From IMG/VR virus record IMGVR_UViG_3300006854_000019: 64,000 nt of DNA; one strand, written 5' to 3'. The stretch's first letter is position 1, and each line of letters opens with the position of its first letter. The position numbers were made by a program, and so were the translations under genes. The notes below the pieces were generated by a model. The model saw nothing but the letters and a program-made list of their open reading frames with translations, did no database searches and was not told the origin of the DNA. Source of the stretch: a virus. Shown here piece after piece: positions 5,125-19,824 of the stretch.

Positions 5125-5181
5125 TTTCTGGTCCAAGCGTACCGCCGAACGGCGAGCGCCTCCTAACAATTCGGTGAAAAC

Positions 5182-5457
5182 TTACGCCGTGTACACGGCT
5201 CCATCGATGACGTGCCCGTGCCACTGGCAGCCTGTGGGCAGGAGGATCGACGGGCGCAGGGTCAGGTTTGCGAGGCCGGTTCCGGTCGCATGCCAGCGCC
5301 CGGGCCCTGGCGTCACGCCGGCGGGCACGTTTCGCCCGGCGAACCAGACCAGGAGCGAATGCTGGTCGGTGAAGCGGCACTTCGGGCAGAGGAAAGTAAC
5401 GCCGCCGGCAAGCGAGAGATCGTCCGTGTGGACGAGAAGCTCGCGATCGCCCTCCAT
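5182..5457 (-). CDS. small Cys/His protein, DUF6527-like (91 aa)
   Basis: FLCPKC...W(x)GTGLANLTLRPSILLPTGCQWHGHVIDGAV resembles the CPxC ... PS(I/L) ... C-x-H-G-x-(I/V)-x-x-G pattern of a phage-associated family I recall as DUF6527. Confidence 0.5.
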   Translation of the reverse strand: MEGDRELLVHTDDLSLAGGVTFLCPKCRFTDQHSLLVWFAGRNVPAGVTPGPGRWHATGTGLANLTLRPSILLPTGCQWHGHVIDGAVYTA

Positions 5458-5504
5458 CGTGTGGATGACGAGCTGCGGCTCGAGGTCGATGAGCCGGAGC
5501 GTAC

Positions 5505-6452
5505 TCAGTAAGGACCGTACCCCGCAGGCTGCACGATGCGGTAGCCGTGAAAGCCGATCGTCAGAATGCCGTTCGGCAGCCGCGTGACCGGGTCGGTGTC
5601 GCCCGCGTCCGCGTTGTTCGTGTCGTTGATGCCTTCGACCGCATCCCAGCCCGCGTCGAGGAAGGGGAAGTTCGTGTTCGGGGCACCGAATCCGGAGAGG
5701 TTTCCGTAGGCGGCGTTGTTGGCGTGCAGGGGCAGGATCTTGAAGGTCAGGACCTCGCCCCGCTCGAACACGTCGAGCGCACCCAGGGGGAAGGGATCGT
5801 TGATCTGCTTACACCAGAGCGAGCTCGGCACTTCGAGGTTCGTTCGGGGGAAGCTCGAGCCGGCGTTCTCGAACTTGATCCGGAAGTCGCCTTCCATCGA
5901 GCGCCAGGGCGAGAGCGTCGGCGGACTCGTCACGTGTGGAGCGCCGGTGCCGGGCGAGGCCTGCACCATCGTGACCTCGACGACGGGCTTACTGTCGCCG
6001 ATGTCCCAGACGCTGGCGATGGGGCGGTAGCGGCCGTTGCTCCGGCCGAGAAACGAGGCGCGGTCTCCGGTCACGGGATCGATGAACTGAAATTCGTAGT
6101 CGGACTGGAAGGTCGCGTAGCGGGCCACTGCCACGAACGGGCCTTCTTGCGAGATGGTGATCGAGCCCTGAAGGACACTCGTCACGCTCGCGCCGACGTT
6201 GATGTCGACCAACAGATCGAACGGGATGCGCCGGCCGGGAATGTTCTCCACGTACTGGATCTTGGGATCACCCGTACGCGAGGCCTCGACCTTTTGAATC
6301 GCCTGCGACAATCGGGCGAGCTCGCCGCGGATCGCATTGGCATCTTGGGACTGAAGTCCTGCTTGCTGCGCGAGTTGAAGGGCCTGCCGGGCAGTGCCCG
6401 ACGCGTAGCCCACTTGGTTCACGAGCTGCGCAAACTGCTGATCGGTAATCAT
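5505..6452 (-). CDS. structural protein candidate: N-terminal coiled coil + beta-rich domain (315 aa)
   Basis: ATG 6452 (MITDQQFAQLV) preceded by GGAGG 6 nt upstream. About 60 aa of helical heptad-like sequence, then a beta-rich body ending GILTIGFHGYRIVQPAGYGPY. Confidence 0.7.
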   Translation of the reverse strand: MITDQQFAQLVNQVGYASGTARQALQLAQQAGLQSQDANAIRGELARLSQAIQKVEASRTGDPKIQYVENIPGRRIPFDLLVDINVGASVTSVLQGSITISQEGPFVAVARYATFQSDYEFQFIDPVTGDRASFLGRSNGRYRPIASVWDIGDSKPVVEVTMVQASPGTGAPHVTSPPTLSPWRSMEGDFRIKFENAGSSFPRTNLEVPSSLWCKQINDPFPLGALDVFERGEVLTFKILPLHANNAAYGNLSGFGAPNTNFPFLDAGWDAVEGINDTNNADAGDTDPVTRLPNGILTIGFHGYRIVQPAGYGPY

Positions 6453-6578
6453 CACGTGCCTCCACAATCGAGGGAGTACCGGCGCGCGGGGTGCGCGCGC
6501 CGTGCCGTTAAGTCGAAGGGCCTAAGCGCGCCGCATCGCCCGCGAAGTGGGAAAGGAGGGAGCCTTTTAGAGGAAGCT

Positions 6579-6610
6579 CGCGAACCACTTCGCGGGCAAT
6601 TGTCGCCCGC
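6579..6610 (-). terminator. two adjacent GC stem-loops just downstream of the capsid-candidate gene
   Basis: CGCGAA-ccac-TTCGCG (6579..6594) and GCGGGC-aattgtc-GCCCGC (6592..6610). A third, GGCGCGCG-gggtg-CGCGCGCC, lies at 6481..6501. No U-tracts. Confidence 0.3.
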
Positions 6611-6636
6611 GGCGCTTGGCGTTTCGGGAGGAGTTC

Positions 6637-7389
6637 TTACTGAACGTCTCGCGAGAACAGACCGTCGAACGTGAAGGTCACGACCTTTTGGATCGCGTCG
6701 ATCGCGTTCAGGTTGTCCCGGAGGCTCAGCATGTCGCGCGACCCTTGGGTCGTGCCGAACAGCTGCGCGTTGCCGTTCGCGCTCATGCCGAAGATCTTTG
6801 CCTGGCAAAGGATGTTCTGGCGGGGCGGGAGCAGGATCGCGCGCGCGAGCCGGAGGATGCCCGAGTGGCCATCGTTGCCGGAGTTCTGCCAGTGGATGAG
6901 GTCGGTCGTGCCGCCCATGTCACCGGAGATTCCGCCGCCGGCCGGGAAGTACCAGGTCGGCATGTTGTCGATGGAGTTCTTGAGGCCGGTGCCGAAGCTC
7001 CAGTGCAGCTGCTCTGCCGTCTGCCAAATCAGACGGTAGTAGTCCTGCACGGTGCCCGGGGCCTGACCCTCGGCGATACCGCCAGTGAGCCACGCCTCGA
7101 GAGAGCCGTAGTCACCGTTCTGCGCCACTTCACCGTCGGCGCCGCCGTCGATCCGCAGGATCGGATTGCGGTACCAGGCGAAGACGCGCAACGCGAGAAC
7201 GACGTGGCTCTGATCGGACGGCAGAGTCGAGCCGTTGATCAGGTTGGTCGTCGACTCGTTGCGTTGCCCGTTCGAGGTGAACAGGCTCGTCGTGTCGGTG
7301 AGGGAACCGGCGCTGAGGCCGGCTGTGCGAACGAGCGTATCCCAAAATGGCTGATGAACGCGCTCGCGAATCGAAACTACCTTTGCCAT
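6637..7389 (-). CDS. major structural protein candidate (250 aa; possible single jelly-roll capsid protein)
   Basis: ATG 7389 (MAKVVSIRERVHQPFWDT). N/G/T/S-rich all-beta-looking sequence ending KVVTFTFDGLFSRDVQ. Preceded by a 276-nt structured leader and followed by clustered hairpins, as expected for a highly expressed capsid gene. Fold assignment is inference only. Confidence 0.6.
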   Translation of the reverse strand: MAKVVSIRERVHQPFWDTLVRTAGLSAGSLTDTTSLFTSNGQRNESTTNLINGSTLPSDQSHVVLALRVFAWYRNPILRIDGGADGEVAQNGDYGSLEAWLTGGIAEGQAPGTVQDYYRLIWQTAEQLHWSFGTGLKNSIDNMPTWYFPAGGGISGDMGGTTDLIHWQNSGNDGHSGILRLARAILLPPRQNILCQAKIFGMSANGNAQLFGTTQGSRDMLSLRDNLNAIDAIQKVVTFTFDGLFSRDVQ

Positions 7390-7614
7390 TGTGTCTTTTG
7401 TCCTTACAGGGCTTCCATTTTTAGAGTGGCTGGTTCCACTTCGTGGATCCCTTTCGGAAGAGCCACAATTCGACCCTGTTGTCGGATGTTCGGGCTGGCA
7501 CTACACGGCACAACCATTGTTCCGTGTGAGCGCCTTCAACGCCCCAAGGCCCGAGCTCCTGGTTTTCCAGGAGACATCGAGCCCGGGAGCGCGGCTGGAT
7601 TCCCTTCTCAGGGA

Positions 7615-7640
7615 CTCACGGTCACCCGCATGACCGTGAG
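7615..7640 (-). terminator. perfect 10-bp stem-loop 26 nt downstream of the polybasic-protein gene
   Basis: CTCACGGTCA-cccgca-TGACCGTGAG; no U-tract follows, so termination is only a possibility. Confidence 0.3.
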
Positions 7641-7665
7641 GGAGCGCACCAGCCTTCGTGATGGA

Positions 7666-9735
7666 TCAACCGAAGACGCCCTGGCCTCCGTCGGTCTGGA
7701 GAATCCCAGCCGGGGTGAGAGCGCTCGCGCTTTGCGGCGAGCTCACCGGCCGGACGCCTGCCCACAGCTGTGGGTCACTCGTCCCGGGGATCCACGTGTC
7801 CGCAGAGGGCACGCGGCTGATAGCGCCGAGACCATTCATGCTCTCGGCGAAGTACTCGCCAACGCCTGCACTGGCCTCGTACGGTTGAACACGACCCATG
7901 CCCGCCGCCGCCTCGTAAGGCGGAAGCTGGCCGACGCCTGCCGCCGCTTCGGCGATCGTGAGCTCGCGCTCGAGATCGCTTGCCGGGTCGATGTGATTGG
8001 TGTTGGTGTTCGGCATCGCGCCGATGCCCGCTGCCGCTTGGTAGAAGTCGGGATTCGGTCCGTAATTGCCGAGACCATTCATGCTCTCGGCGAAGTACTC
8101 GCCCATCCCGCTCATCGGCTCGTTGAAGTACTCGCCCACGCCGCGCCCACCGCTGATCGCGGCGTAGTGCGGCATGATGCTCGCGCCCGCGCCGAGGCCG
8201 TACATGGCGGACAGGCGTGCAGCCGTTCCGTCATCGTACCCAGCGAGGTAGCCCGAGGCCTGCGGAGCAACCTTGTCGAACACGGTAACGAGCACCGTGT
8301 GCAGGAAGGCTGCGGCGAGACCGCCGGTGAGCAAGTACTGCGTCTTGACGTCCTTCACCACCGCGGTCGTGAGCGCGATGCCAGCGATGGCGCCGACAGC
8401 GCCGCCGATGAGTGCCTTGTAAGGCTGAAGGGCTTCGAGACCGCTCGTGGCCGGAGGGGTCGCCGGCGCTGCGGGGGTAGCCGCTTTGCCGAGCACCTTG
8501 TCGAGGACGAGATCGCCCAGGACTTTGGTGATGACCTTCTGACCAGCGAAACCGAGCGCGATGAAGGCGCCTGCTTTGAAGGCGGCTTCGAGATTGCCGA
8601 GAGCGCTGTTCTTACGGAACACGCTCTTCGACCGACGGCTCTTGCGCGCCCGGCGACGGCCGTGATGCCGGCTCCGGTTCGGAGTGTGCCGGCGATTCTT
8701 GCGGTGCGTGCGGCGCTTCGCGTGCGACCGGCGACGGGCATGCACCCGGCGGCGATTGCGACGATGCGTACGGCGCTTGGCCGCGTGGCGGCGGTTCTTG
8801 CGATGCGTGCGGCGCTTTGCAGCACGGCGGCGCGGCGAACGACGCTTGGCCGAAGCCTTGCGGCGCTTCCTACGGCGCGGTGCGGCCACCTTCACAGCAC
8901 GGCGGCGGCGCTTGGCCGACGCTTTCCGCTTCTTCCGGCGGCGCTTCCGCGGGTTTGCCACGTAATCGCTCTCGCTCGAGCGCATGGCGCGGCGGCGCGC
9001 GCGGCGCTGGGCCGAAGCGTACGACGCCCGACGCCGACGACGCCGGCTACGGCGCTTCTTCGGCGTGGCTGCCCGCTTGGCAGCGGCGCGGCGGCGCTTT
9101 CGGGGCGCGCTCTTACGCTTGCCTGCGCTTCGGCGCCTTTTCTTGTGGGTACGCTTGGCTGCATGAGTGCGGCGGTTCGCGGCGAGCCGCGAGCGCCGAC
9201 GACGACGTCGCTTCATGGTGCTTTTCCTTCCTGCGTGCTTCCGAATGCGCTTTCGCGTACTCGAAGTTTTTCGGGTTCGTTTTGCCGAAACCTTGCGCTT
9301 GCGCGACTTTTTGGCGACCTTGCGGCGGTGCCGCGCGGGACGCGCAGCCGCGACGGTCGGCGTGTGCCGGCGGAACTTGCGGCGGCGGGGCGAGCCGAAC
9401 CGCGATCCGCTATGCGTGAGCGGGTGGGCGCGGACCGTGCGACGTTTCGCGTTCTTCCGGTGCGACGCGCTGTGCACCCGCTTGGCAAACGCGGACCGTT
9501 CGGACGCCGTCAGCTTTCTGGCACGTGCGAGGCGCGCATTCGGGGAGAGCCCCGTCATCGCCCGGCGGGCGGAGGTCGGCCGGCGGCGGAATCGCCTACG
9601 GTAGGCGCCCCGGCCGTTCACCGCGGCAATCGCGGTGACCCCTGGATTTGCCCGCATCCCGGGCCGCGCGTAGCCGTAGCTCTTCGCCGCCCTCTTCGGG
9701 ATCGGGAATGCGCGTCCTACTGCTCGTCGCTTCAT
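7666..9735 (-). CDS. polybasic (protamine-like) N-terminus + hydrophobic core + GxGEYF-repeat C-terminus protein (689 aa)
   Basis: ATG 9735. First ~380 aa are dominated by R/K/H with tandem AAKRRTHRKNRRH-type repeats. Middle has hydrophobic helices (GGAVGAIAGIALTTAVV, LLTGGLAAAFLHTVLVTVF). C-terminus carries GVGEYFNEPMSGMGEYFAESMNGLG and a second GVGEYFAESMNGLG. Confidence 0.8.
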   Translation of the reverse strand: MKRRAVGRAFPIPKRAAKSYGYARPGMRANPGVTAIAAVNGRGAYRRRFRRRPTSARRAMTGLSPNARLARARKLTASERSAFAKRVHSASHRKNAKRRTVRAHPLTHSGSRFGSPRRRKFRRHTPTVAAARPARHRRKVAKKSRKRKVSAKRTRKTSSTRKRIRKHAGRKSTMKRRRRRRSRLAANRRTHAAKRTHKKRRRSAGKRKSAPRKRRRAAAKRAATPKKRRSRRRRRRASYASAQRRARRRAMRSSESDYVANPRKRRRKKRKASAKRRRRAVKVAAPRRRKRRKASAKRRSPRRRAAKRRTHRKNRRHAAKRRTHRRNRRRVHARRRSHAKRRTHRKNRRHTPNRSRHHGRRRARKSRRSKSVFRKNSALGNLEAAFKAGAFIALGFAGQKVITKVLGDLVLDKVLGKAATPAAPATPPATSGLEALQPYKALIGGAVGAIAGIALTTAVVKDVKTQYLLTGGLAAAFLHTVLVTVFDKVAPQASGYLAGYDDGTAARLSAMYGLGAGASIMPHYAAISGGRGVGEYFNEPMSGMGEYFAESMNGLGNYGPNPDFYQAAAGIGAMPNTNTNHIDPASDLERELTIAEAAAGVGQLPPYEAAAGMGRVQPYEASAGVGEYFAESMNGLGAISRVPSADTWIPGTSDPQLWAGVRPVSSPQSASALTPAGILQTDGGQGVFG

Positions 9736-9827
9736 CGGTGACTACCTCGTCAGGCAGATCCCTGCGTTGCTCGCAGGGACAGCCGGTCAGTCCGATGAAG
9801 GAGATCCGGTGTTTCGCGGTAAAACCC

Positions 9828-9863
9828 ACGCTACTGGGCGTGCCGGATTAGGTCAAGAAATCG
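9828..9863 (-). promoter_or_regulatory. promoter-like motif CGATTTCTTGACC-N17-TAGCGT upstream of the polybasic-protein gene
   Basis: Minus strand: -35 TTGACC = 9856..9851, -10 TAGCGT = 9833..9828. The 13-mer CGATTTCTTGACC is identical to the one at 53128. Confidence 0.5.
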
Positions 9864-9870
9864 AGCGAAA

Positions 9871-10044
9871 CTATTTCTTGCGCGCCAGCCAAAGAATGCC
9901 GGCAGCAGCAAGAAGGCCGATTCCGATGATCCCGCGAGTGGTCAGGAGCTTCGTTTGCGGGTGCGATTCGTTGTAGGACGGGGCGTTCGTAAGGACCGGC
10001 GGCGGGTGGAGGTCATCACCTACGGGGAAGTTTGCGTACGACAT
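9871..10044 (-). CDS. tail-anchored membrane protein (57 aa)
   Basis: ATG 10044 (MSYANFPVGDD) overlaps TGA of upstream gene by 1 nt; C-terminus RGIIGIGLLAAAGILWL-ARKK. Confidence 0.6.
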   Translation of the reverse strand: MSYANFPVGDDLHPPPVLTNAPSYNESHPQTKLLTTRGIIGIGLLAAAGILWLARKK

Positions 10045-10916
10045 CAGCGGGTCCTCCAAAGCACGAGTCCGAGGGCAGCGGCGCCGGCGACGAGAAGTGC
10101 CGTGTTGCGGATCGTCTCCGATTGTTTCTGTGCGTGGCCAACGAGATGCTCATGCTCGCGCACGACGGCAGTGTAACGGAGTAGCACGCGCGGGGTCGCG
10201 CCGAGGAGCGCGTTCGTGGCATCGGCCAAACGCTGCACAGACACCGCCGGCGGGAAGCTGCAGACGTTGTAGGGCACCGTGTTTGGTGGGAGAGACGAGG
10301 GGGATCCGTTCCAGCCTGGTGGCGGGAACAGATCCATTGCACCAGCGGCCACGAGCTCAGCCCACGAATTGATCGGTGTGAGCGCGCCCTTGTACATGGC
10401 AGTCGGCGGCTTCACTTCCGGATGGGCGCGGCGCGCATCATCGACCGCCTTGATCGAAGCATTCTGCTGGCGCAAGTACTGCTCGTGCAGCGGCGCACAC
10501 GCGCGGAGCTCGGCTGCGGCGCGCATGCGTTCGCCAGCGTGGTCCAGGTAGTCCTGGCAGGCTGGCGTGTTGTGGAACGTCGCGCCGCCCGCGCGCATCT
10601 GTTCGCAGAAGTTACACGGATCGAAACTGTGCACGGTGTTGCAGTCGATCGGGTGACTCACGCCGAAGATGTCATCGAGGACATCGGCCACGGCGCCCAC
10701 GATGGCGCCGGCGACTGCGCCGCAGGGCCCTGGCGGAATGCCGTAGGCCGCGCAGTACGCGTTCGCGGCGCAGCTTGCGCCGTTTTTCGCGGCGTTTTTT
10801 CGCCCGTCGCCCGTCGATAGATCACCGTGGGCAGCGAGTTTCGCGCAATTGCCCATCTTGACGTCGATGTCTTTGCCTTTGTCGTCGCCGAGACCGCGGA
10901 AGAATTGGTAGCTCAT
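10044..10916 (-). CDS. Cys-rich tail-anchored membrane protein (290 aa)
   Basis: ATG-AGC-TAC start (MSYQFFRGLGDD), ATGA overlap at 10913..10916; many Cys in the ectodomain; C-terminus NTALLVAGAAALGLVLW-RTR. Confidence 0.75.
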   Translation of the reverse strand: MSYQFFRGLGDDKGKDIDVKMGNCAKLAAHGDLSTGDGRKNAAKNGASCAANAYCAAYGIPPGPCGAVAGAIVGAVADVLDDIFGVSHPIDCNTVHSFDPCNFCEQMRAGGATFHNTPACQDYLDHAGERMRAAAELRACAPLHEQYLRQQNASIKAVDDARRAHPEVKPPTAMYKGALTPINSWAELVAAGAMDLFPPPGWNGSPSSLPPNTVPYNVCSFPPAVSVQRLADATNALLGATPRVLLRYTAVVREHEHLVGHAQKQSETIRNTALLVAGAAALGLVLWRTR

Positions 10917-11470
10917 CCGGTGATCCCGTCCTTTTCCACGTCGAGTACTTCGCCGGTCACGAGCGCATGCACGCCGGCTTGCGTGTACACGATGAGCATC
11001 ATCTGCCCTGTCTCGGGATGCTTCGTAGCACCGAGCCAGCCGGCAAGATTGATCTGGTAGTAGCCGCCGCGATCGGGAATGCCGTAGTCATCGGGCGTGC
11101 CTTCGTGCAGGCGGGCCTGGATGCCAAGGATCTTGGCGAGCACGGCAAAGCCTTCAGGCATGGGCCGCGGGAGTTCGAGCATCGGGCCCACAAAGTCGTC
11201 GTCATCTTCGGCGAAGATCACAGAACCCGGGGTGAGAAGGAGATTCTGGTTACCTTCGGCGATGTGCTTGTAGTCGACCGGCACTTTCTCGCGCCACTTG
11301 TCGGAGCTGTACATCACCGCCTCGCACGTGCCCACGTGCTGCATCCGCCGCGGCCAGGTCCAGGAGACCGGCGTGATCTTGTTCGCGGGTTCGTCATAGA
11401 ACGTCTCGCGGATCTTTTTGGCCCGCTCGATGTCGCTTTTTCGGTTCGGCGTGTAGATGCGGCGGATCAT
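10913..11470 (-). CDS. hypothetical soluble protein (185 aa)
   Basis: Internal ATG 11470 (MIRRIYTPNRK) forms an ATGA overlap with the stop of 11467..11793; no TM helix; no motif recognised. Confidence 0.7.
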   Translation of the reverse strand: MIRRIYTPNRKSDIERAKKIRETFYDEPANKITPVSWTWPRRMQHVGTCEAVMYSSDKWREKVPVDYKHIAEGNQNLLLTPGSVIFAEDDDDFVGPMLELPRPMPEGFAVLAKILGIQARLHEGTPDDYGIPDRGGYYQINLAGWLGATKHPETGQMMLIVYTQAGVHALVTGEVLDVEKDGITG

Positions 11471-11793
11471 CGGTTTCGCTTCCAGATCCACCAGCCGATG
11501 CCGATGCCGAGGGCGAGCATGCCGATGTTGCCGATGCCGATGCTCATGCTGGCGCCGAGTACGCCCGAGCGGGACATGGGCGCAACGAGCCCGCGCGCTA
11601 CGGGTCCGGAACCGACACGGGTCGAACCCGAGGGGATGGAACGGCCCGCTTCGTTACTCGGGATCCCGATGTCGGTACCGCCTGACAGGCGTGGCACGGG
11701 CAGATCATCGCCGATGCCGACCGATTGACCGGGCGCATCGTAGTAGTCGTACCCGCCGATGTCCGGGCGCCATTGAGAGTAGATCACGCCCAA
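11467..11793 (-). CDS. tail-anchored membrane protein (about 106-108 aa)
   Basis: TTG 11793 or GTG 11787 start; high third-position G+C in this frame across 11705..11793; C-terminus MSIGIGNIGMLALGIGIGWWIW-KRNR. Confidence 0.6.
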   Translation of the reverse strand: MGVIYSQWRPDIGGYDYYDAPGQSVGIGDDLPVPRLSGGTDIGIPSNEAGRSIPSGSTRVGSGPVARGLVAPMSRSGVLGASMSIGIGNIGMLALGIGIGWWIWKRNR

Positions 11794-12145
11794 GTATGAT
11801 CCGCTGGCTTACGCGGGAGGTCCAGATTTCGCGCCGGAACTGCTGCCCACGATCTGAAACGCCACCTGATCGACAGCGCCTACGGTAGTTCCATCGCCGA
11901 AGGGGCAGGGGCGCGAGCATCCACTCGAGGCTCGGGATCGTGTCGGCGTCATCCTTCATGGCATCGAATTCTGCCTGGGTGATCCCGATCACGAGAAAGC
12001 CCTGCCGCTTGTAAACTTGCCGGCGGCGGTCGCGGGCTGGCCGCTTCGCCTCTTCATGGGCCAGTTGAACCGCCCCCTCGAAGCTCACGATTTCCAGACC
12101 TCGGCGGCGACGTGCGATCCGGCGGTCAGCGGGCGTTTCTTTCAT
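11705..12145 (-). CDS. hypothetical basic protein (146 aa as read); 3' end doubtful
   Basis: ATG 12145 in ATGA overlap with upstream gene. The N-terminal ~85 aa look coding. The last ~100 nt have poor third-position G+C and overlap the next gene by 89 nt (see finding). Confidence 0.5.
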   Translation of the reverse strand: MKETPADRRIARRRRGLEIVSFEGAVQLAHEEAKRPARDRRRQVYKRQGFLVIGITQAEFDAMKDDADTIPSLEWMLAPLPLRRWNYRRRCRSGGVSDRGQQFRREIWTSRVSQRIILGRDLLSMAPGHRRVRLLRCARSIGRHRR

Positions 12146-13209
12146 GGCAGATCGGCTAGCTCGGCCCAGCGGGTTTGTTCCCGGGCGTCTTCGACCGCGC
12201 GCATCCCGCCCTGGTTTGCACGAAAAAGCCTGCCTTGGCGGTTTTCGGTGCCGGGATCGAGGTTCGCTTCCCAGCGGTAGCGCATGTCATCCACGTCGTT
12301 TTCGCTGAGGCCCGAAGCGATGTACGCGAGGCTCAAGAAGTTCACGGCGTCCGGATCAAGCCCGCGGACGTCGAGCGCAAGAAGCGTTGTCGATTCGGCA
12401 GCGTAGATCGTGCCCGGTGTTTTCAAGATTTCCTTCCAAAGCCAAAGGATCGCGCTTTCGTCGGGCACGCTTTCCGGGATCGCCACGCCGAGCTCGACCG
12501 CTACCAGGTTGTGTTTCTCCGCACTTTCGTACTCGTAAATGTCGTACGAGACTTCCTTCTCGCGCTCGATGTCCACGTTCAGCGTGTTGACGTATCGGAC
12601 TTTGGCGTCCTCGTAGTCGAGCGTGACGCAGCCTTCAATTTCGTCGGCGGTGATGTTGAGGTCCACGCCCTCTTCGACTTCTTCTTCGGTCTCGGTGTGC
12701 TCTTCGGTAAGGCCCTTGCTTGCGGCTGCCGACCACCAGCGCGATGCGGCGTGCGAGCGGGAGCTCGAGGCCGAGGAGATGCCATCCTTCGACTGGTTCT
12801 TCGGCCACATGTCGATCGCGACATCCGGCAGGTTGTAGTTCGCGTACGCACCAAGACTCAAGGCGGTATAGAGCGAGGTGCCGTAGCCGCCGCCCTTGAT
12901 CGCGACGCCATCGGGCGTGTGCGCGCGTGGGTAGCCCGTGATGCGCGCCGGCTCGGCGTAGTCCGAATGGCGATCGCTTTCGTAGTAGCCGACGCCGAGA
13001 CGGGCGAGAAAGTTATTGGCGCGGAGGCTTCGGATGCCCACGTAGTCCCCATCGGTGATGGTGATGAGCGGCTCCTGGAGTTTCGGGTTCACCACGATGC
13101 CAAGAAGCATGCGGCCGCTGAGCTCGATCTTTGGGCGGCCGGCGCCGGGCGTCGGCGCGCTGAGCTCAAGTCCGGTGTTTCTGCGGTAGCGCGGCATGCC
13201 CCGCCTCAC
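12142..13209 (-). CDS. hypothetical protein with central acidic stretch (355 aa)
   Basis: GTG 13209 in GTGA overlap with the stop of 13206..13487 (alternative ATG 13197); acidic EEHTETEEEVEEGVD segment; no motif recognised. Confidence 0.75.
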   Translation of the reverse strand: MRRGMPRYRRNTGLELSAPTPGAGRPKIELSGRMLLGIVVNPKLQEPLITITDGDYVGIRSLRANNFLARLGVGYYESDRHSDYAEPARITGYPRAHTPDGVAIKGGGYGTSLYTALSLGAYANYNLPDVAIDMWPKNQSKDGISSASSSRSHAASRWWSAAASKGLTEEHTETEEEVEEGVDLNITADEIEGCVTLDYEDAKVRYVNTLNVDIEREKEVSYDIYEYESAEKHNLVAVELGVAIPESVPDESAILWLWKEILKTPGTIYAAESTTLLALDVRGLDPDAVNFLSLAYIASGLSENDVDDMRYRWEANLDPGTENRQGRLFRANQGGMRAVEDAREQTRWAELADLP

Positions 13210-13487
13210 TTCGGGCGGCGCATTACGACGAGGCCGATGGCCAGGACGCCGAGTCCGAGCGCCCAGAGCATCGTCTTGTCACTCGAGCGCTCGCAGGTGC
13301 CGGCGCAGTAGTCGAGGCTCAGGAGGTGCGCGATCTGTTCGGGGGTGCAGAGACCGCCTTGGTTCGTTTGGCAATCTTCGACGATCTTCTGGTTCAGCTC
13401 GTCGCTGTAGCAGGTGTACGACTGATCGGCGGGCTTTGCCGTCGGTGTCGAGTCGAAGGGCCAGACGCCCATCGCCTGATAGCTCAT
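13206..13487 (-). CDS. Cys-containing tail-anchored membrane protein (93 aa)
   Basis: Internal ATG 13487 (MSYQAMGVWPF), ATGA overlap with upstream stop; C-terminus TMLWALGLGVLAIGLVVM-RRPK. Confidence 0.65.
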   Translation of the reverse strand: MSYQAMGVWPFDSTPTAKPADQSYTCYSDELNQKIVEDCQTNQGGLCTPEQIAHLLSLDYCAGTCERSSDKTMLWALGLGVLAIGLVVMRRPK

Positions 13488-14380
13488 GCTGTAGCCGCCG
13501 TTTTCTTCGCGCTCATGAAGCGCTCGGTCACCTGGGGCAAGAATTCGATGAGCAGAAAGACGCCGACACCGATGCCGCCGATGTACATCGCGGTCTTGTA
13601 CCAATCGACGTTCGCGCCTTCGGCGAGCTTGTTGCAGAGATCTTTTTGATCCTGGGTCGGGTTCGGCATCTGCTGGCAGAGCCGGATGTCTTCGTGCAGG
13701 CGCCGGTTATTCGTTGCTGCGTACTCGTAGAGCGCAACGATCGTGGCCAGGCCCAGGATCAACGCCACGGCGGCAACCAGAATGCCGACCGGGATCACGG
13801 GCACTTCGCCGAGCCCGGACGCGCCGCCTTGCGACTTCATGAGCGCGATCGAATGCGCGACCGCTGCGTCCACCTGGTGCACGGTGCCCGATTGGAGCTC
13901 GGGGCTCGTGATGATGTACTTCTGAAGAATGCCGCTTTCGCCGATCTTTGCGACGGCCTGGAAAAGCGTGAGCCGGGCCTGGTAGTCCAGGCCGAATTGT
14001 TCGGGGCCGAGTTTCGCCTGGGCGGCGACCACGTTCGCGTGGCCCCAGTGCGCCGGCGCGCCGTCCGCTGCCGCGATGAAGGCTGCAACCAGGATGTCCC
14101 GGAGCACATCGAACGATGTCTGCACCGCGAGCGAGACGGGAACCGAGGCGTAACCAAGAAATCCGAGCACGCCGTCGGCGCGCTTCGTGAGATCTTTTCG
14201 CATCGCCGCCATTTCGGCGAACGCATTCCGGGGCGCGATCGCGTCGATGCCGGGCAGCATGTTGATCTGCACGAGCGCGCGCGTGTACCACTGGTCGAGC
14301 CAGAGGGCGCGGGTGACTTCATCGTTCGAGGGGGACGACTCGACCGTGAAGCGGACTGCAAGATCCTTGTAATCGGCCAT
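13484..14380 (-). CDS. membrane protein, two helices in the C-terminal third (298 aa)
   Basis: ATG 14380 (MADYKDLAV); helices VPVIPVGILVAAVALILGLATIVALY and AMYIGGIGVGVFLLIEFL. Confidence 0.75.
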   Translation of the reverse strand: MADYKDLAVRFTVESSPSNDEVTRALWLDQWYTRALVQINMLPGIDAIAPRNAFAEMAAMRKDLTKRADGVLGFLGYASVPVSLAVQTSFDVLRDILVAAFIAAADGAPAHWGHANVVAAQAKLGPEQFGLDYQARLTLFQAVAKIGESGILQKYIITSPELQSGTVHQVDAAVAHSIALMKSQGGASGLGEVPVIPVGILVAAVALILGLATIVALYEYAATNNRRLHEDIRLCQQMPNPTQDQKDLCNKLAEGANVDWYKTAMYIGGIGVGVFLLIEFLPQVTERFMSAKKTAATA

Positions 14381-14386
14381 CGTGGT

Positions 14387-14776
14387 TCAGGCGTGCTTCG
14401 GCTTCTTCTTGTGCTTCTCCCACTCCTTGTAGCCGTAGTACGCGCTACCGAGGGAAGCGACGGCGATGAGGCCGTAGGCCCAGAAGGGAACCTGGTTCAA
14501 GGCAGAAGCAATGTCGCGCTTCCACGCCGGCATCTCCGCGCCCGTTTCCACGAAGCGGCGGAACGCCTCGGGCAGGATGCTCGAATCGGTCGGTACATCG
14601 CCGAGGCCGTCGGGCGTCCGGCCCATGTCCGTGTAGTACCCATCGTCATACGGAGCGCGGAAGTTCGACACGTCACCGTACATGCGTCCCGGCGGCCAGG
14701 CGGCGCCGAGGCCCTGAAACGGTACGCCGATGAACGGCGACCGAAAGGACTGCATGCCGATGTACTTCCGACTCAT
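14387..14776 (-). CDS. tail-anchored membrane protein (129 aa)
   Basis: Internal ATG 14776 (MSRKYIGMQSF) in ATGA overlap with upstream stop; C-terminus VPFWAYGLIAVASLGSAYYGY-KEWEKHKKKPKHA. Confidence 0.65.
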   Translation of the reverse strand: MSRKYIGMQSFRSPFIGVPFQGLGAAWPPGRMYGDVSNFRAPYDDGYYTDMGRTPDGLGDVPTDSSILPEAFRRFVETGAEMPAWKRDIASALNQVPFWAYGLIAVASLGSAYYGYKEWEKHKKKPKHA

Positions 14777-15384
14777 GCGTGTATCCAACCCTTCTTTTTG
14801 GCGATCGCGTAGCCGATGACGCCGACGGCCGCGATGCCGCCACCGACCATCAGCATGCTGGCCGTGGTCATCTTCGGCTTGGTCGGCGCAAGCACGGGAT
14901 TGGTCACCGGCGTCGGGGTCGGCGCGGGCGGCGGCGGGGGTGGTGGTGGCGGGGCCAGGTGCGGATCGTAGGAGAACGACTTGCACGTGCCGGGCACGGA
15001 GAAGCCCGAGCCGCCATTGTCGAGCGCCCACTTGAGCGCGCCGCAGGTGCCGGGGCCGAGCTTTCCGTCAGCGCCGACCGTGGCCGCGCCCTTCGAGGCG
15101 AGGAAATTATTCAGGGTGCGCTGCATGAGCGCGGTGTTCGAGCTGTACGTACCCCAGGGGTATGAGCTTGCCGGTCCGCCGCCGCCGGCATTGATCCCGT
15201 GCTGCAGGCCGCCCGTTGCGCAGTTCGCCTGGCAGATGGTGCGATTTCGCGTATCGTCCTCGTCGAAGGACGGGTACTGCGCGCCGCACTTGTCCAGGCA
15301 CTGGTTGAAGCTGAAATCGTCGAGGCCGGAGTCGTCAGCGCCGACGCCGCGATTTTTCGTCTTGAAAATACCCATCCCTTGCAT
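14773..15384 (-). CDS. tail-anchored protein with peptidoglycan-binding-like domain and poly-Pro linker (203 aa)
   Basis: LMQRTLNNFLASKGAATVGADGKLGPGTCGALKWAL fits the PG_binding_1 pattern (LQ..LN..G....vDG.fGp.T). Then PPPPPPPPPAPTPTP and the helix MLMVGGGIAAVGVIGYAIA-KKKGWIHA. Confidence 0.7.
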   Translation of the reverse strand: MQGMGIFKTKNRGVGADDSGLDDFSFNQCLDKCGAQYPSFDEDDTRNRTICQANCATGGLQHGINAGGGGPASSYPWGTYSSNTALMQRTLNNFLASKGAATVGADGKLGPGTCGALKWALDNGGSGFSVPGTCKSFSYDPHLAPPPPPPPPPAPTPTPVTNPVLAPTKPKMTTASMLMVGGGIAAVGVIGYAIAKKKGWIHA

Positions 15385-15390
15385 GGCGGA

Positions 15391-16104
15391 CTATCCTTTC
15401 CTCTTCTTCATGAAATAGATGAGCGCGGCGGCAGCGATCCCGCCGACCACGAGAGCCTTGGTTTCCGAGCTCATGTTCGCCGGCGAATAGCGCCCGGGGA
15501 GTTTCGTGCCGGTGGGCGGGGGAACGACCGAGCCGCCGGGCGGCTTCGTGCCGCCACCCCCGCCGCCGGAACCACCACCCGATGCGCCGCAGTTCGGGCC
15601 CTTCTTCGGGGGCGTGCCGAAACCCTGGCATGTAGAAGGTGGCGGCATGCCGATCGGGATCATCGCGGCGCAGGTGCCGGCGCCGAGTTTTCCGTCAACT
15701 GGGATCGGGCAGTATCCGGCGGCGACGAGCGCGAGATTGATCGAGCCCTGAAGGCCGACCGTGGCCGTGCTGTACTCGCGCCACGGGTAGCCCGCGTCAT
15801 CGCCGAGCCCGCGGAGCCCGCTGATCCCGTTGTTGAAGATCCCGCCGCCCGCCTCTTCGGTGCCGAAGATGCCGCGTTTGGTTTCCCACAAGAGTTCGCC
15901 GAGGCCGGAGAGGCCAGAGAGTCCCGACATGGATGATCCTTTTTCCTGCCAGATGTCTTCGGGCTTGAAGACCGACTGGGGCGAGGTCCTGTAGATGAGG
16001 GGGCCCGTGACCGGACGCGTGTAGATCGGGCCGTGGAACCGCGTGGGCCACGGATGCACCGTCCAAACGAACGGTGAGGGGACGCCCGAATCTTGATACC
16101 GCAT
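15391..16104 (-). CDS. tail-anchored protein with peptidoglycan-binding-like domain, paralogue of 14773..15384 (237 aa)
   Basis: ATG 16104 with AAGGA/GAGGA upstream (track start 16113 is TTG). VGLQGSINLALVAAGYCPIPVDGKLGAGTCAAM; Gly/Pro linker; C-terminus ALVVGGIAAAALIYFM-KKRKG. Confidence 0.7.
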   Translation of the reverse strand: MRYQDSGVPSPFVWTVHPWPTRFHGPIYTRPVTGPLIYRTSPQSVFKPEDIWQEKGSSMSGLSGLSGLGELLWETKRGIFGTEEAGGGIFNNGISGLRGLGDDAGYPWREYSTATVGLQGSINLALVAAGYCPIPVDGKLGAGTCAAMIPIGMPPPSTCQGFGTPPKKGPNCGASGGGSGGGGGGTKPPGGSVVPPPTGTKLPGRYSPANMSSETKALVVGGIAAAALIYFMKKRKG

Positions 16105-16116
16105 CGTCCTCAATCC

Positions 16117-16533
16117 TTACCGATGGTGAAGCGCGACTGCCGCCTCGATACCGAGACCGAGCGGTCCGAGAAAGAGTCCCGCCGCAACGCCCCAGAGGGC
16201 GTACTTCATTTGCTTATCGCGCGAGGGAGCGACCGCCTTGCCCACGAAGTAGCCGGCACCGGCGCTGATGGCGGCGCCGAGCAGCGCCATGCCGAGACCG
16301 ACGGGATAGTTATGACCCGTGGCCGGGACGTTCGTGGTTGGCGGCGTTGCGTCTGCCGAGAGCGCGCCGAGCGCACTGAGCGCGGGAGAATACTTGCCGA
16401 GCGAGGAGAGCACGCCGGGGCGACGCTGGGGCGTGCGCGCGATCGCGCCGAGCCCTGACATGGGCTCGTTGAAATACTCGCCCATGCCGCTCATCGGTTC
16501 GTCGAAGTATTCGCCCAGTCCAAGTTGGTTCAT
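16117..16533 (-). CDS. membrane protein with N-terminal GLGEYF-EPMSG-G repeats (138 aa)
   Basis: MNQLGLGEYFDEPMSGMGEYFNEPMSGLG, then two C-terminal helices (VGLGMALLGAAISAGAGYFVG, YALWGVAAGLFLGPLGLGIEAAVAL); ATGA overlap at 16530..16533. Confidence 0.75.
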   Translation of the reverse strand: MNQLGLGEYFDEPMSGMGEYFNEPMSGLGAIARTPQRRPGVLSSLGKYSPALSALGALSADATPPTTNVPATGHNYPVGLGMALLGAAISAGAGYFVGKAVAPSRDKQMKYALWGVAAGLFLGPLGLGIEAAVALHHR

Positions 16534-17219
16534 TTGCCTTTCCTTCGTTTCGAGCTCCGGAGCGATGCGTACGCGGCGCCGGCAGCAAGACCGGCAAGGC
16601 CGATGAGGCCGATGACTTTCCAGTTCGAGGAGAGACCCGGCGCAGGCGCGTCGTCGGCGCCGATCGCTTGCGGGTTCTGCCGCACGTTGACGATCGATTG
16701 CATCGCCATGGGCGAGCCCTGGCCCGCGCGCATCACGGGACGCGGGGGCGCGTAGACGCCGCCTTCGAGGTAGGCGATCTGCGCGGCGCTATCCATGCTC
16801 ACCGCACCGCTCGGCACGTACACGACGGGGCGGCCCGTCGTCACATCGACCACTTCACTCGGCTCCCACATCCGCTCGCGCGCGAGGTAGCCGGGGAGAT
16901 CGAAGCGCGCGGCAAGAATGCCGGCGTCCGCGTTGATGTTCGGGCGCGTACCGGGCGGATCGAAGACCCCGTTGCCTTGGATGTCGTCGGCTTCGGCGTA
17001 GACCGCGAGCTCGTTCGCGGCGTAGGCCTGATCGGCCGCTTCGTCCTGCACATCGACATCGGAACCGGCGAGATGGCGGCCGTGCGCACGATCGATCGCG
17101 GTCTGGTAAAATGGAGCCGTGCCTGAGGAGTAGCGAAGATCGCTCGGGCCCACCTGGGTCATCCGGGGGAGCTCCCCGCTCCAGGGCTGGTTGTCGTAGT
17201 CGGGATAAATCGGGCTCAT
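16530..17219 (-). CDS. tail-anchored membrane protein (229 aa)
   Basis: ATG 17219 (MSPIYPDYDN); C-terminus WKVIGLIGLAGLAAGAAYASL-RSSKRRKGK. Confidence 0.75.
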   Translation of the reverse strand: MSPIYPDYDNQPWSGELPRMTQVGPSDLRYSSGTAPFYQTAIDRAHGRHLAGSDVDVQDEAADQAYAANELAVYAEADDIQGNGVFDPPGTRPNINADAGILAARFDLPGYLARERMWEPSEVVDVTTGRPVVYVPSGAVSMDSAAQIAYLEGGVYAPPRPVMRAGQGSPMAMQSIVNVRQNPQAIGADDAPAPGLSSNWKVIGLIGLAGLAAGAAYASLRSSKRRKGK

Positions 17220-17223
17220 CGGT

Positions 17224-17562
17224 TCACCGTTTCTTCTTCATCGATCGGTAGGCGATGATGCCACCACCGACGACGAGGGCGGCGACGAGGCCGCCGATGA
17301 CGAGCTTCTTTTTCTGATCGTCTTCACCCGATCCGGCTCCGGCTCCGCTGTCGGTCGGCGTGCCGCGGTCGGTGTGCGTCGGCACCGACGTCATGGACAC
17401 GCACGGGCGAAGCGTCTGCACCCAGCACGGATCGGCGCCTGCGAAGCGGCCGCTGAGCGCGCCGAGACCCGCGATCACGGGGTGGCAGTTCGCGCGCGCT
17501 TCGATGAGCTCGGCCTGCGTTGCGCAGGTGGGGTATCCACCGTTTCCGAGTCCGCTGTACAT
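17224..17562 (-). CDS. tail-anchored protein with YPTCATQA...ADPCWVQTL domain (112 aa)
   Basis: Internal ATG 17562 (MYSGLGNGGYPTCATQAELIEARANC...GADPCWVQTLRPC) overlapping the upstream stop by 1 nt; C-terminus KKLVIGGLVAALVVGGGIIAY-RSMKKKR; paralogue of 17936..18604. Confidence 0.65.
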   Translation of the reverse strand: MYSGLGNGGYPTCATQAELIEARANCHPVIAGLGALSGRFAGADPCWVQTLRPCVSMTSVPTHTDRGTPTDSGAGAGSGEDDQKKKLVIGGLVAALVVGGGIIAYRSMKKKR

Positions 17563-17921
17563 CACGCTGCCTTTCGATGGCGGTAGTAAAGAAATCCGGC
17601 GATGGCGACCGCCGCTGCGATGCCGCCATAGAGCGCATAGTTCGGTTTGCTCGAGGCCGGAGGGACATCGCTCCGCGGCGGAACGAGACTGCCGCCGTTC
17701 GGCGGCGTGTTCGTGTTCGGCGGGGGCTGCGTTCCGCCACCACCACCGCCGCCGCCACCGGTCCACCACGAGTCGTGCGTGGTCGGCGGGACGTTGGTCA
17801 TTTTCGGCGCCACGTGGCTGTCGGTCGGCACACTCGAAAGGCGCGGGGCGATGTGCTCGTCACCGGGCGGCGTGTAGTCCGATTGGACCTTGATATTGAT
17901 GTCTCCGATGGCGGCGTACAT
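17562..17921 (-). CDS. tail-anchored membrane protein, Gly/Pro-rich (119 aa)
   Basis: ATG 17921 (MYAAIGDINIKVQ); GGGGGGGGG / PPPNTNTPP stretch; C-terminus YALYGGIAAAVAIAGFLYY-RHRKAA. Confidence 0.65.
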   Translation of the reverse strand: MYAAIGDINIKVQSDYTPPGDEHIAPRLSSVPTDSHVAPKMTNVPPTTHDSWWTGGGGGGGGGTQPPPNTNTPPNGGSLVPPRSDVPPASSKPNYALYGGIAAAVAIAGFLYYRHRKAA

Positions 17922-17935
17922 CGTCTCGGTGCTCC

Positions 17936-18604
17936 TTACTTTTTCCGTTTCTTCCAGACACGATAAGTGACGTACGCGCCGCCGACCAGAAAAGCAGCCA
18001 AAACTCCAACCGAGCGAAGTCCACCGGCGTTTTTCTGGTCCGTTGTCTCAGGCGTCGGGATCGGCGGCGGTTCGTAGATCCCGGGATCCGGCGTTTCGGT
18101 CACCGATGATTTCGGTGGCGGTGGCGGCGGCGCGAACGGCGGCGAACGCGTGGGTGGTGGCGGGGGCGGTGTGTTTTGCTTCGGCGGTGGTGGCGGCGGC
18201 GTGGTGTACCAGGGGCCCGTCGGCGAAGGTTTCGGGGGCGGGGGCGGGGTGGGCTTCGGGCGTGGCGGCGGCGGCGTGAACCACGTGCCGACCTTGGGCG
18301 GCGGCTTCGGTGGGGGTGGCGGCGGAGGCGTGGGCTTTGGGCGCGGCGGCGTAAACCAGTTGCCGACTTTGGGCGGCGGGGGTTTCGGTGGCGGCGGCGC
18401 GGAACGGGCGGGCGGCGTGAACCAGGTGCCGGTTCTGCAAAGCGGCAGCGTCTGCACCCAGCAGGGATCGGCGCCGCCGAAGCTCCCGGTCATGCCGAGG
18501 CCGGCAAGGTTACGGGCGCGGCATTCGATCTTGGCCTGATCGATATCCGCTTGTGTCGCGCACGTGGGATAGGCACCGAGGGGAGGGATTGCTGCGTAGC
18601 TCAT
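17936..18604 (-). CDS. tail-anchored protein: YPTCATQA...ADPCWVQTL domain + (T/N)WFTPP-polyPro repeats (222 aa)
   Basis: ATG-AGC-TAC start (MSYAAIPPLGAYPTCATQADIDQAKIEC...GADPCWVQTLPLC); four repeats of xWFTPPxxxPKPxPPPP; C-terminus LRSVGVLAAFLVGGAYVTYRVW-KKRKK. Confidence 0.75.
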   Translation of the reverse strand: MSYAAIPPLGAYPTCATQADIDQAKIECRARNLAGLGMTGSFGGADPCWVQTLPLCRTGTWFTPPARSAPPPPKPPPPKVGNWFTPPRPKPTPPPPPPPKPPPKVGTWFTPPPPRPKPTPPPPPKPSPTGPWYTTPPPPPPKQNTPPPPPPTRSPPFAPPPPPPKSSVTETPDPGIYEPPPIPTPETTDQKNAGGLRSVGVLAAFLVGGAYVTYRVWKKRKK

Positions 18605-18607
18605 CGA

Positions 18608-19132
18608 TCAATCCGTTTTGAAGGCGCGCCAGGTTTTCACGCGGCGGAGCATTTGCGCTTCGGTCGTGCCGGCCACCGGATCGCACACGATCCACTTGTT
18701 CGATTTCGGTTCGTGCACGCGCGCGAACACGTGGCTGAACTGGTTCGGGGCGCCGAAGCCCACGATCACGAACTCCGCTTCGCGGCCGACTTGCCGGGCG
18801 CAGGTCGCGATGAGCACCGCGATGTCGTCGCAGTCGCCGGAAGCGACGCCGCGCGCTTCGATCTCTTCCACCATCCGCTCGGCATCCTTACTGAGCTCGG
18901 TGGTCAGGGGATCGTTCACGTAGCGGACCTTTTCGGCGACCGCGTTTCGGATGGCCAGGATTTCGCCGAGGTAGTCTTTGGGCTGGAGACCCGACACGAT
19001 CGACTCGGTGAAGGACCGCACCCTGATGCTCCGCTCGCCGCGCTGGCCGCGAACGTGCGCGATCATCTGGCGAATGGTCGTTTCCGGCCCGCGGAAGGGG
19101 GCGTACGTGGTAGGCGGCGCGGCATCGAGCAT
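18608..19132 (-). CDS. transglutaminase-like cysteine peptidase-fold protein (174 aa)
   Basis: GDCDDIAVLIATCARQVGREAEFVIVGFGAPNQFSHVFARVHEPKSNKWIVCDPV supplies the Cys / His / Asp triad in the order and spacing of the transglutaminase-like core. First gene downstream of a promoter-like motif. Confidence 0.6.
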   Translation of the reverse strand: MLDAAPPTTYAPFRGPETTIRQMIAHVRGQRGERSIRVRSFTESIVSGLQPKDYLGEILAIRNAVAEKVRYVNDPLTTELSKDAERMVEEIEARGVASGDCDDIAVLIATCARQVGREAEFVIVGFGAPNQFSHVFARVHEPKSNKWIVCDPVAGTTEAQMLRRVKTWRAFKTD

Positions 19133-19177
19133 AGTTCGGCCCTTGCTGCCGAACCGGTGACGCCGACTGCACCACCC

Positions 19178-19214: not shown

Positions 19215-19233
19215 CGCTGAAACTTCTTCGGGC

Positions 19234-19566: not shown

Positions 19567-19576
19567 GGCGGTGTCC

Positions 19577-19819: not shown

Positions 19820-19824
19820 AGGGG

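Follow-up and report, generated by a model that had tools for sequence, protein, structure and literature searches.

A short glycine-hydrophobic-glycine motif recurs beyond chance in some two dozen small membrane proteins encoded by a 64,000-nucleotide stretch of viral DNA (IMG/VR record IMGVR_UViG_3300006854_000019; this whole stretch is termed the window). The conserved element is a small residue followed by G-Φ-G (GΦG), where Φ is Leu, Met, Ile, Val or Phe, and it belongs to the products of one gene module on the minus strand (799-19132), an unbroken run of approximately 28 genes. A sequence-only reading of the same DNA had described the pattern as (M/I/L)xGxG, placed it at 7666-16533 and likened it to the cleavage consensus of the adenovirus protease adenain. 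Its observation is partly confirmed here and its interpretation partly supported. The (M/I/L)xGxG pattern is a subset of the conserved element; a run of motifs does lie at 7666-16533, but the phenomenon is wider and covers 799-18604. The interpretation we favour, with a rough probability of 0.45, is that the motif acts multivalently, as a tag by which the membrane proteome of the virus particle docks or co-assembles.

Recurrence and conservation of the motif

Motif counts were compared with the expectation from composition-preserving shuffles of each protein, using 29 module proteins and 59 other proteins of the window. In the module, G[LMIVF]G occurs 49 times against 14.5 expected (z 9.7), [MIL]xGxG 24 times against 9.5 (z 4.7) and the combined pattern [MIL]xG[LMIVF]G 20 times against 2.4 (z 10.9). 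GxG with a non-hydrophobic centre is depleted (26 vs. 40.8 expected, z -2.5), AΦG and GΦA are at expectation, and in the 59 other proteins every pattern is at expectation. When local Gly-richness was kept by shuffling in blocks of 10, 15 or 30 residues, GΦG still stood at 49 against 16-18. At least one motif outside a transmembrane (TM) segment is present in 18 of the 29 proteins (8.8 expected), and no excess was seen in a control set from PRD1, a phage with an internal membrane (5 vs. 10.5 expected). Since the excess over shuffles, its survival of block shuffling, the per-protein count and the PRD1 control agree, the recurrence is real. All of the pentapeptides listed by the sequence-only reading are present: in the 689-aa protein (7666-9735) MSGMG at residue 541, MNGLG at 552 and 633 and ISGGR at 527; MSGMG and MSGLG in 16117-16533; INGLG twice in 3217-4023; and the remainder as given in Table 1. 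The (M/I/L)xGG-x type, represented by ISGGR and LSGGT, does not belong to the signal, given that [MIL]xGGx is barely over chance (16 vs. 9.1 expected, z 2.4) and many of its sites, on our reading of the listed matches, lie inside hydrophobic TM stretches.

The recurrence could have arisen without any dedicated function, as a side effect of common ancestry and of flexible linkers rich in Gly, with small N-terminal modules duplicated, shuffled between neighbouring genes and kept by drift. Module proteins are indeed Gly-rich, and several repeats are visibly homologous: the unit EYFNEPMSG-M/L-G is common to the 138-aa (16117-16533) and 689-aa proteins, an identical 33-nucleotide (nt) unit encoding EYFAESMNGLG occurs twice in the 689-aa gene, 3217-4023 carries a 45-bp tandem repeat (2.1 copies), and there are two paralogue pairs (14773/15391 and 17224/17936). 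The earlier statement that most motifs are embedded in GxGEYFxEPMSGxG repeats holds for the 689-aa and 138-aa proteins only. We consider this explanation improbable, as plain Gly-richness accounts neither for the block-shuffle result nor for the depletion of non-hydrophobic centres, and the 18 carriers of the window fall, on our reading of the clusters, into roughly a dozen sequence families. Furthermore, the repeat units differ by synonymous changes, including a TCA/AGC serine switch between the 138-aa and 689-aa genes, with the peptide kept, and the motif load persists in distant relatives, as described below.

Conservation was followed in 14 related loci (L006-L019), retrieved with the transglutaminase-like protein of the module (18608-19132) as probe and comprising 101 open reading frames (ORFs) in the downstream gene run (positions >10400 of the loci). 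Their non-TM residues contain 124 GΦG against 55 expected (z 9.5), and 71-72 of the 101 proteins carry the motif (37.7 expected), whereas the upstream replication genes are close to chance (50 vs. 44). In a logo of the 124 motifs, position -2 is occupied by V (.14), A (.11), I (.10), M (.10), L (.07) or F (.07), position -1 by A, S, N or Q, and the centre by L (.56) or F (.16); A, G, D or E follow at +3/+4, and aromatic residues are enriched at -6 and at +7 to +9. Written out, this degenerate linear motif reads [hydrophobic-preferring]-[A/S/N/Q]-G-[L>F,M,V,I]-G; in many instances the next residue is acidic or small, with an aromatic residue after it (GLGEYF, GLGAYY, GLGDD..YPW). Examples are SGMGEYFNEPMSGLG, NQAINGLGAYYKN and EAAAGVGQLPPYEAAAGMG.

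Single sites come and go from one orthologue to the next, yet the total load is retained. For example, most relatives of the 16530-17219 protein have GLG or GFG at two alignment columns (AGLG, SGLG or AGFG at one site; NGLG or SGIG close to the TM segment), at which the window copy has AGSD and AIGAD, and orthologues of 3217-4023 retain one GLG at the aligned position. Related metagenome-assembled genomes keep GΦG(EYF) and AAAGVG arrays near the gene for the 250-aa marker protein (6637-7389), both where that marker is 57-58% identical (L025, L026) and where identity has dropped to 31% (L030, one of the relatives L029-L031 at 29-33% identity). The persistence of the load at 31% identity of a neighbouring marker, while individual sites turn over, indicates selection on the motif. 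In its degenerate core, turnover of instances and multivalency, the element behaves as a short linear motif, and the Gly-rich composition of the N-terminal arms suggests that they are flexible.

Most module gene products are small tail-anchored proteins, with one hydrophobic segment at the extreme C-terminus followed by a short K/R tail. Tail anchors were called from a hydropathy scan where a protein had no N-terminal signal peptide (judged by eye), one hydrophobic segment within approximately 15 residues of the C-terminus, and a short tail. By this definition, 62 of the 101 ORFs in the relatives and about 14 proteins in the window are tail-anchored. The C-tails of the 62 are very short and strongly basic (174 K+R vs. 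3 D+E; 41% K/R), and the motif copies lie on the membrane face opposite these tails. Placement within the single-TM tail-anchored proteins is also biased, with 50 of 74 motifs in the first 40% of the N-domain and 15 of 74 adjoining the TM segment; several proteins open with the motif (MQGMG, MYSGLG, MNQLGLG), and some motifs begin as early as residues 2-4. A sortase-like or GlyGly-CTERM sorting signal, brought to mind by the combination of TM segments and basic C-tails, was considered and rejected, as there are no N-terminal signal peptides and no conserved motif ahead of the TM segment.

The cluster beside the TM segment, the membrane location of all carriers, and a 2.3-3.0-fold enrichment of D at +3/+4 (GLGDD, GIGDD, GVGADD) would suit a structural or ligand-binding loop. 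Gly-flanked hydrophobic residues might dip into the membrane interface and influence curvature, or G-Φ-G-D/E-D turns might bind divalent cations in the manner of the GGxGxD repeats of RTX proteins. Such a role seems very improbable. Most motifs are distal and N-terminal, far from the TM segment; neither the period of 9-11 residues nor the residues themselves suit the nonapeptide of RTX proteins; Pfam gave no match to a repeat family; and the EYF and AYY variants have no acidic pair.

Docking tag or cleavage site

As a docking tag, the motif would act as a common "sticker" that gathers approximately 20 unrelated membrane proteins into one virus-specific membrane patch, where the tail-anchored proteins and the DNA-binding 689-aa membrane protein would be collected together. 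The motifs may dock into a pocket that recurs on a soluble, conserved shell or matrix protein, for which the 250-aa protein encoded at 6637-7389 is the best candidate. By an alternative route, the motifs might associate with one another through weak Gly/aromatic contacts, like FG-type or kinked low-complexity segments. In either case avidity would be supplied by multivalency, through tandem copies and the large number of carriers. The carriers form one topological class, tail-anchored with K/R tails, and so must be co-sorted.

The main rival is that the motifs are maturation cleavage sites and that the product of 18608-19132 is a particle protease cutting at or beside G-Φ-G. On this account the N-terminal arms would be removed and the C-terminal array of the 689-aa protein dismantled, possibly with the tag being cut off after use in targeting. 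The parallels would be the processing of pVI/pVII/pVIII by adenain and the removal of targeting peptides by T4 gp21 and phiKZ gp175. The enzyme was correctly described by the sequence-only reading as transglutaminase-like and not of the adenain fold. Its residues 41-152 match PF01841 (E 2.8e-7; 31.2 bits, cut-off 23), and Cys101 (DCD), His134 (SHV) and Asp151 (W-I-V-x-D) are invariant in 14 homologues. Because this triad is invariant, the protein is probably an active thiol enzyme and a candidate protease; the fold alone assigns no activity, as it serves proteases, cross-linking enzymes and amidases. No Pfam match to a clan-CE (adenain/Ulp1-fold) family was found among approximately 70 scanned proteins of the window, which is 64 kb of a contig of ~135 kb. 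LapG, a bacterial transglutaminase-like cysteine proteinase, has an Ala-Ala cleavage site rather than Gly-Φ-Gly, and we know of no transglutaminase-core protease with Gly-X-Gly specificity. Like LapG and other members of the PF01841 superfamily, the 18608-19132 protein retains the core and the triad; unlike them, it is a minimal, stand-alone core of 174 aa without a sequence relative in the PDB. The possibility that the motif is instead a Gln-substrate tag for a transglutaminase (LLQG-like) was rejected, with Gln at -1 in just 7% of the 124 motifs.

Several observations suit cleavage. The enzyme gene is the first gene upstream of the membrane-protein run, and each of the 14 loci has a motif-rich run downstream of it. 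An N-terminal bias is compatible with propeptide removal. In the window, 20 of the 49 GΦG have M/I/L at -2 and so fit (M/I/L)XGX-G formally, and in the relatives hydrophobic residues are enriched at -2. There is also precedent: adenain cuts precursor core and cement proteins at (M/I/L)XGG-X and (M/I/L)XGX-G, and the T4, phiKZ and adenovirus proteases were recognised through a short consensus common to many virion proteins. A list of adenovirus protease substrates is available (PMC5409498). The resemblance to adenain (MEROPS C5) substrates extends to a Gly-based short motif on many unrelated putative particle proteins, including a very basic, putatively DNA-condensing one, and to a thiol enzyme encoded alongside.

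The analogy weakens at the level of the consensus. What defines the motif here is the hydrophobic residue between the glycines (P1), which adenain leaves unspecified, while M/I/L occupies the adenain P4 position (-2) in just 27% of the 124 motifs in the relatives and 25% of those in the 689-aa family, where Ala reaches 40% and AAAGVG is the commonest context. The second adenain type, (M/I/L)xGG-x, is not enriched, and the enzyme belongs to another fold, one that includes cross-linking enzymes and cell-wall amidases. The arrangement of sites fits poorly as well: they are not positionally conserved in orthologues (both are lost in the window copy of 16530-17219), tandem arrays spaced 9-11 residues apart would yield only tiny peptides, cuts at residues 2-6 would release 3-5 residues, and proteins outside the module do not avoid the motif. 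We therefore judge cleavage unlikely and favour a docking tag, because P4 is unconserved, the second type is at chance, sites turn over, the arrays are closely spaced and motifs lie at extreme termini. Cleavage sites or an assembly/targeting signal had both been offered by the earlier reading; the second option fits turnover, variable copy number and N-terminal placement better, and these findings speak against the adenain analogy.

The two functions could coexist, by analogy with the capsid-targeting peptides of T4. In T4 (gp21) and phiKZ (gp175), short N-terminal peptides with a common consensus direct many head proteins into the assembling particle; their sites end in Glu (L/I-x-E, S/A/G-x-E), occur once per protein, and are cut by a herpesvirus-type serine protease in the setting of HK97-fold capsids. 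The N-terminal bias reported here is similar, but the carriers are tail-anchored membrane proteins and an HK97 module is not seen. Degenerate, multivalent Gly plus hydrophobic or aromatic motifs with variable copy number and rapid turnover are likewise found in the GLFG repeats of FG-nucleoporins and in low-complexity aromatic-rich kinked segments, which GLFGPGGYGGGIFDGSQMGFGGLG in relatives and the C-terminal GVFG of the 689-aa protein resemble; here, in contrast, there are usually 1-3 copies per protein, the centre is mostly Leu rather than Phe, and the setting is bacterial and viral. A short consensus common to particle proteins is a known kind of feature. New here are the Gly-Φ-Gly core, the tail-anchored carriers, the neighbouring enzyme of transglutaminase fold and the unannotated lineage.

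Five points weigh against a docking tag. First, it leaves unexplained the thiol enzyme with an intact triad that heads the module. Second, M, I, F and V are enriched 2-3.4-fold at -2, a preference that the S4 pocket of a protease could also select. Third, part of the sharing is plain homology, as in the EYFNEPMSG unit and the paralogue pairs. Fourth, neither the window nor the 10 kb past each of its ends showed a recognisable terminase, portal, packaging ATPase or capsid fold. Finally, the AlphaFold2 (AF2) models of the two best-conserved soluble proteins have a mean predicted local distance difference test score (pLDDT) of 46 (250-aa) and 56 (~315-aa), too poor to look for a motif-binding pocket.

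A more ambitious synthesis, which we regard as a long shot, is that these are large bacterial viruses (125-180 kb) that contain a membrane, form a lineage not described before and package their DNA with a membrane-anchored, protamine-like protein. Their approximately 20 tail-anchored proteins would carry the Gly-Φ-Gly tag both as a particle address label and as the cut site of a maturation protease of transglutaminase fold, a "target, then trim" scheme like that of adenovirus and T4 but independently evolved, with another protease fold and acting on a membrane proteome. If the enzyme does cut at the tag, viral maturation proteases would gain a new class, one whose consensus is defined. To our knowledge, little is known of how membrane-containing viruses of bacteria select the membrane proteins of their particles, and a single tag on most of a particle's membrane proteome would make that selection testable.

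The 689-aa protein and the conserved soluble proteins

The richest carrier of the motif is also the most unusual protein of the module. The first 395 residues of the 689-aa protein (8551-9735) contain 169 K+R against 4 D+E in degenerate basic repeats and are protamine-like, suggesting a putative role in DNA condensation; a membrane-tethered protein of this kind would be unusual for a bacterial virus. Public gene calls for this ORF cover just the last 318 aa. The long form is real: across six genomes its N-terminal 90 residues share 46-61% identity, and the ORF is uninterrupted in each of them. The C-domain holds nine G-hydrophobic-G motifs (residues 511-645, nt 7801-8205) and ends in GVFG. Its 115 homologues have 5-10 motifs each (median 8), and the repeat unit differs by clade: GLGEYFAQN (9 aa), GMGEYFxEPMS (11 aa), GMGEYFREPMN or GLGEYFSSGVS. 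This copy number and the clade-specific unit length are typical of avidity-driven linear motifs. At P4 the homologues have A (.40), M (.20), V (.15) or Q (.05), and the commonest contexts are AAAGVG (approximately one copy per homologue), AAAGMG, AAAGYG, AMYGLG, GVSGLG, GVNGLG and AQNGLG. In the retrieved set, the last four residues of every homologue are G-[VIL]-F-G, and a cut site so placed would be pointless. The side of the membrane on which the protamine-like domain lies relative to the motifs hinges on whether a weak first hydrophobic segment (401-419, score 1.05) spans the membrane, so the label "ectodomain" given to the motif regions by the earlier reading is not established.

Two soluble proteins of the module serve as lineage markers. 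The 250-aa protein has a mean column identity of 79%, far above that of the other module proteins, and such exceptional conservation is as expected of a hub. Its family comprises 110 representatives at 50% identity, some of them ~200 aa long, and a profile search against 1.84 billion representatives returned only these 110 relatives, with no bridge to a named family. Some members (among P0242, P0244, P0245, P0249 and P0269) have insertions of 100-260 residues after position ~160, one of them an Ice_binding-like beta-solenoid, which is what a loop exposed at the surface of a shell protein would be expected to show. Sequence features of this kind make the 250-aa protein a candidate for the shell or hub, and it may be the receptor of the motif. 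The second marker (5505-6467) has a conserved SGFGAPN loop, with LSGFG at residues 254-258 counted from a MITDQQ start or 257-261 in the full ORF; in a consensus of 34 sequences, G250 and N251 are invariant and the remaining motif positions are majority residues only. The AF2 models of both were built from alignments of 34-35 sequences. Foldseek searches with these low-pLDDT models gave weak top matches of jelly-roll type (concanavalin A lectins; SPV1, CRESS and picornavirus capsids) at TM-score <=0.25 and E >=1e-3, and profile searches of the PDB with the alignments of the 250-aa, ~315-aa and transglutaminase-like proteins found no match.

Gene content and lineage of the virus

The window has a G+C content of ~64%, is densely packed with genes and belongs to a viral contig of ~135-138 kb (ena:ERZ27257952:k141_3898925); relatives in IMG/VR are contigs of 111-182 kb. 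Outside the module, it codes for DnaB, a pol III beta clamp, ParB, RuvC-like nucleases, a DNA methyltransferase, a PG_binding endolysin-like protein and glycosyltransferases; no tRNA was found in it. Within the module (Table 1), the members that are not tail-anchored include, besides three soluble proteins, the J-domain protein, the transglutaminase-core protein and the 689-aa protein. The J-domain protein may recruit host Hsp70 for assembly, as judged from its domain.

Table 1. Features of the motif-bearing module in the window; TM, transmembrane segment; C-tail, residues after the C-terminal TM segment.
Coordinates	Strand	Feature	Motifs and other details
799-1155	-	118-aa membrane protein, starts MSYVS	QQGVG, TSGMG ahead of TM
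1687-2313	-	J-domain protein, Cys-rich N-terminal region	No motif; Pfam DnaJ, E 5.3e-12; conserved in 5 relatives
2319-2792	-	157-aa tail-anchored protein	MSGLG, LTGFGFG; C-tail QKKR
3217-4023	-	268-aa tail-anchored protein	N-terminal repeats NQAINGLGAYYKNAYNQPINGLG...PSGMGFG, nt 3883-3984
4174-5169, 5505-6467, 6637-7389	-	Three soluble proteins without family match, interspersed in module	
5505-6467	-	~315-aa soluble protein (N-terminal helices and beta-sandwich)	653 homologues
6637-7389	-	250-aa soluble protein, most conserved in module (68-88% identity)	687 homologues, none named
7666-9735	-	689-aa protein	Conserved N-terminus; 395-aa basic domain; 2-3 TM (~401-486); acidic C-domain
10044-10916	-	290-aa tail-anchored protein	Begins MSYQFFRGLGDD
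11467-11793	-	108-aa Gly-rich tail-anchored protein	SVGIGDD at residue 24 (orthologue RRGLGDD); LSGGT, of the non-enriched type
13484-14380	-	298-aa membrane protein	ASGLG right ahead of first TM
14387-14776	-	~129-aa protein, likely start MSRKYIG	FQGLG and PDGLG either side of conserved VSNFRAPYDDGYY
14773-15384	-	203-aa tail-anchored paralogue of 15391-16113	Starts MQGMGIF..., then NRGVG; C-tail KKKGWIHA
15391-16113	-	Tail-anchored protein	LSGLG, LRGLG; Gly/Phe-rich GIFG, GGGIF; motif just upstream of weakly PG_binding-like domain
16117-16533	-	138-aa protein, two TM	N-terminal array MNQLGLGEYFDEPMSGMGEYFNEPMSGLG, nt 16441-16527
16530-17219	-	229-aa tail-anchored protein	Motif lost in window copy (HLAGSD, AIGADD)
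17224-17562 (ORF 17224-17769)	-	Tail-anchored protein, likely true start MYSGLG, giving 112 aa	YSGLG (2-6), IAGLG; C-tail RSMKKKR
17936-18604	-	222-aa Pro-rich tail-anchored protein (~40% proline)	LAGLG at residue 33; Cys-containing N-terminal module
18608-19132	-	174-aa soluble thiol enzyme, transglutaminase core (papain-like fold)	Pfam PF01841

Gene content, the IMG/VR classification and the weak jelly-roll-type matches suggest that the module builds the particle. Scans of approximately 90 proteins with Pfam and PHROGs left the structural module blank save for Transglut_core and DnaJ, and neither megablast of 1-20000 nor tblastn of the ~320-aa protein (5505-6467) against 50,697 phage records gave a match. 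Tail proteins, HK97 or double-jelly-roll capsid proteins and an FtsK/HerA-type packaging ATPase were not recognised in the window or in 10 kb past each end. The structural genes fall into none of the known capsid, terminase or portal families, so the module may stand for a particle architecture not described before. A contiguous, late-type run of many small membrane-protein genes beside soluble candidate shell proteins is shared with PRD1, PM2 and Bam35. These internal-membrane phages differ in showing no sequence or profile similarity to the module and in having genomes roughly ten times smaller than the 125-180 kb here; the double jelly-roll capsid protein and the FtsK-type ATPase are not recognised here, and nothing in those phages corresponds to the membrane-anchored protamine-like protein. 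Searches by profile and structure and of the literature gave no match for the motif carriers or the motif, and no description of the lineage was found in the literature. The two marker proteins (250-aa and ~315-320-aa) have 687 and 653 homologues in metagenomes, all of them "hypothetical", so that the lineage is widespread and without any annotation. Planctomycetota and Gemmatimonadota are candidate hosts, as judged from the binning of metagenome-assembled genomes only.

Further features were recorded in and around the module. In the family of 14773-15384 and 15391-16113, the segment LQxxLNxALxxxGYxPIxVDGKLGPxTCGA gives recurrent matches to PG_binding_3 below the cut-off (E 0.05 in 14773-15384; 0.007-0.04 in 5 of 7 relatives); if real, it would place a cell-wall-binding domain on the motif side of the membrane. 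The Pro-rich protein (17936-18604) shares a paralogous N-terminal module with 17224-17769 and contains a 75-bp tandem repeat (18228-18403) with units PPPKP...GTWFTPP. Upstream of the transglutaminase-like gene, 20414-22933 encodes a protein of 839 aa, helical and Glu/Arg-rich over a long central part and Pro/Ala-rich in its C-terminal part, for which no family match was found; it is kept in this position in relatives (808-897 aa in L006 and L017) and may be scaffold- or tape-measure-like. Directly after the structural-looking run, at 1-754 (partial; also L022:13270-15210), lies the gene for a 646-aa protein whose C-terminal region resembles TnpB/Cas12f (PHROG transposase, E 1e-12). Approximately 7-9 kb past the right end of the window (L020:16904-19124), a two-component system is encoded, consisting of two response regulators and a HisKA/HATPase_c kinase. 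In one relative (L003:18138-20408), homologues of 59860-60519 and of the glycosyltransferase gene 61888-63207 directly follow the structural run, so that the gene order around the module is rearranged between relatives.

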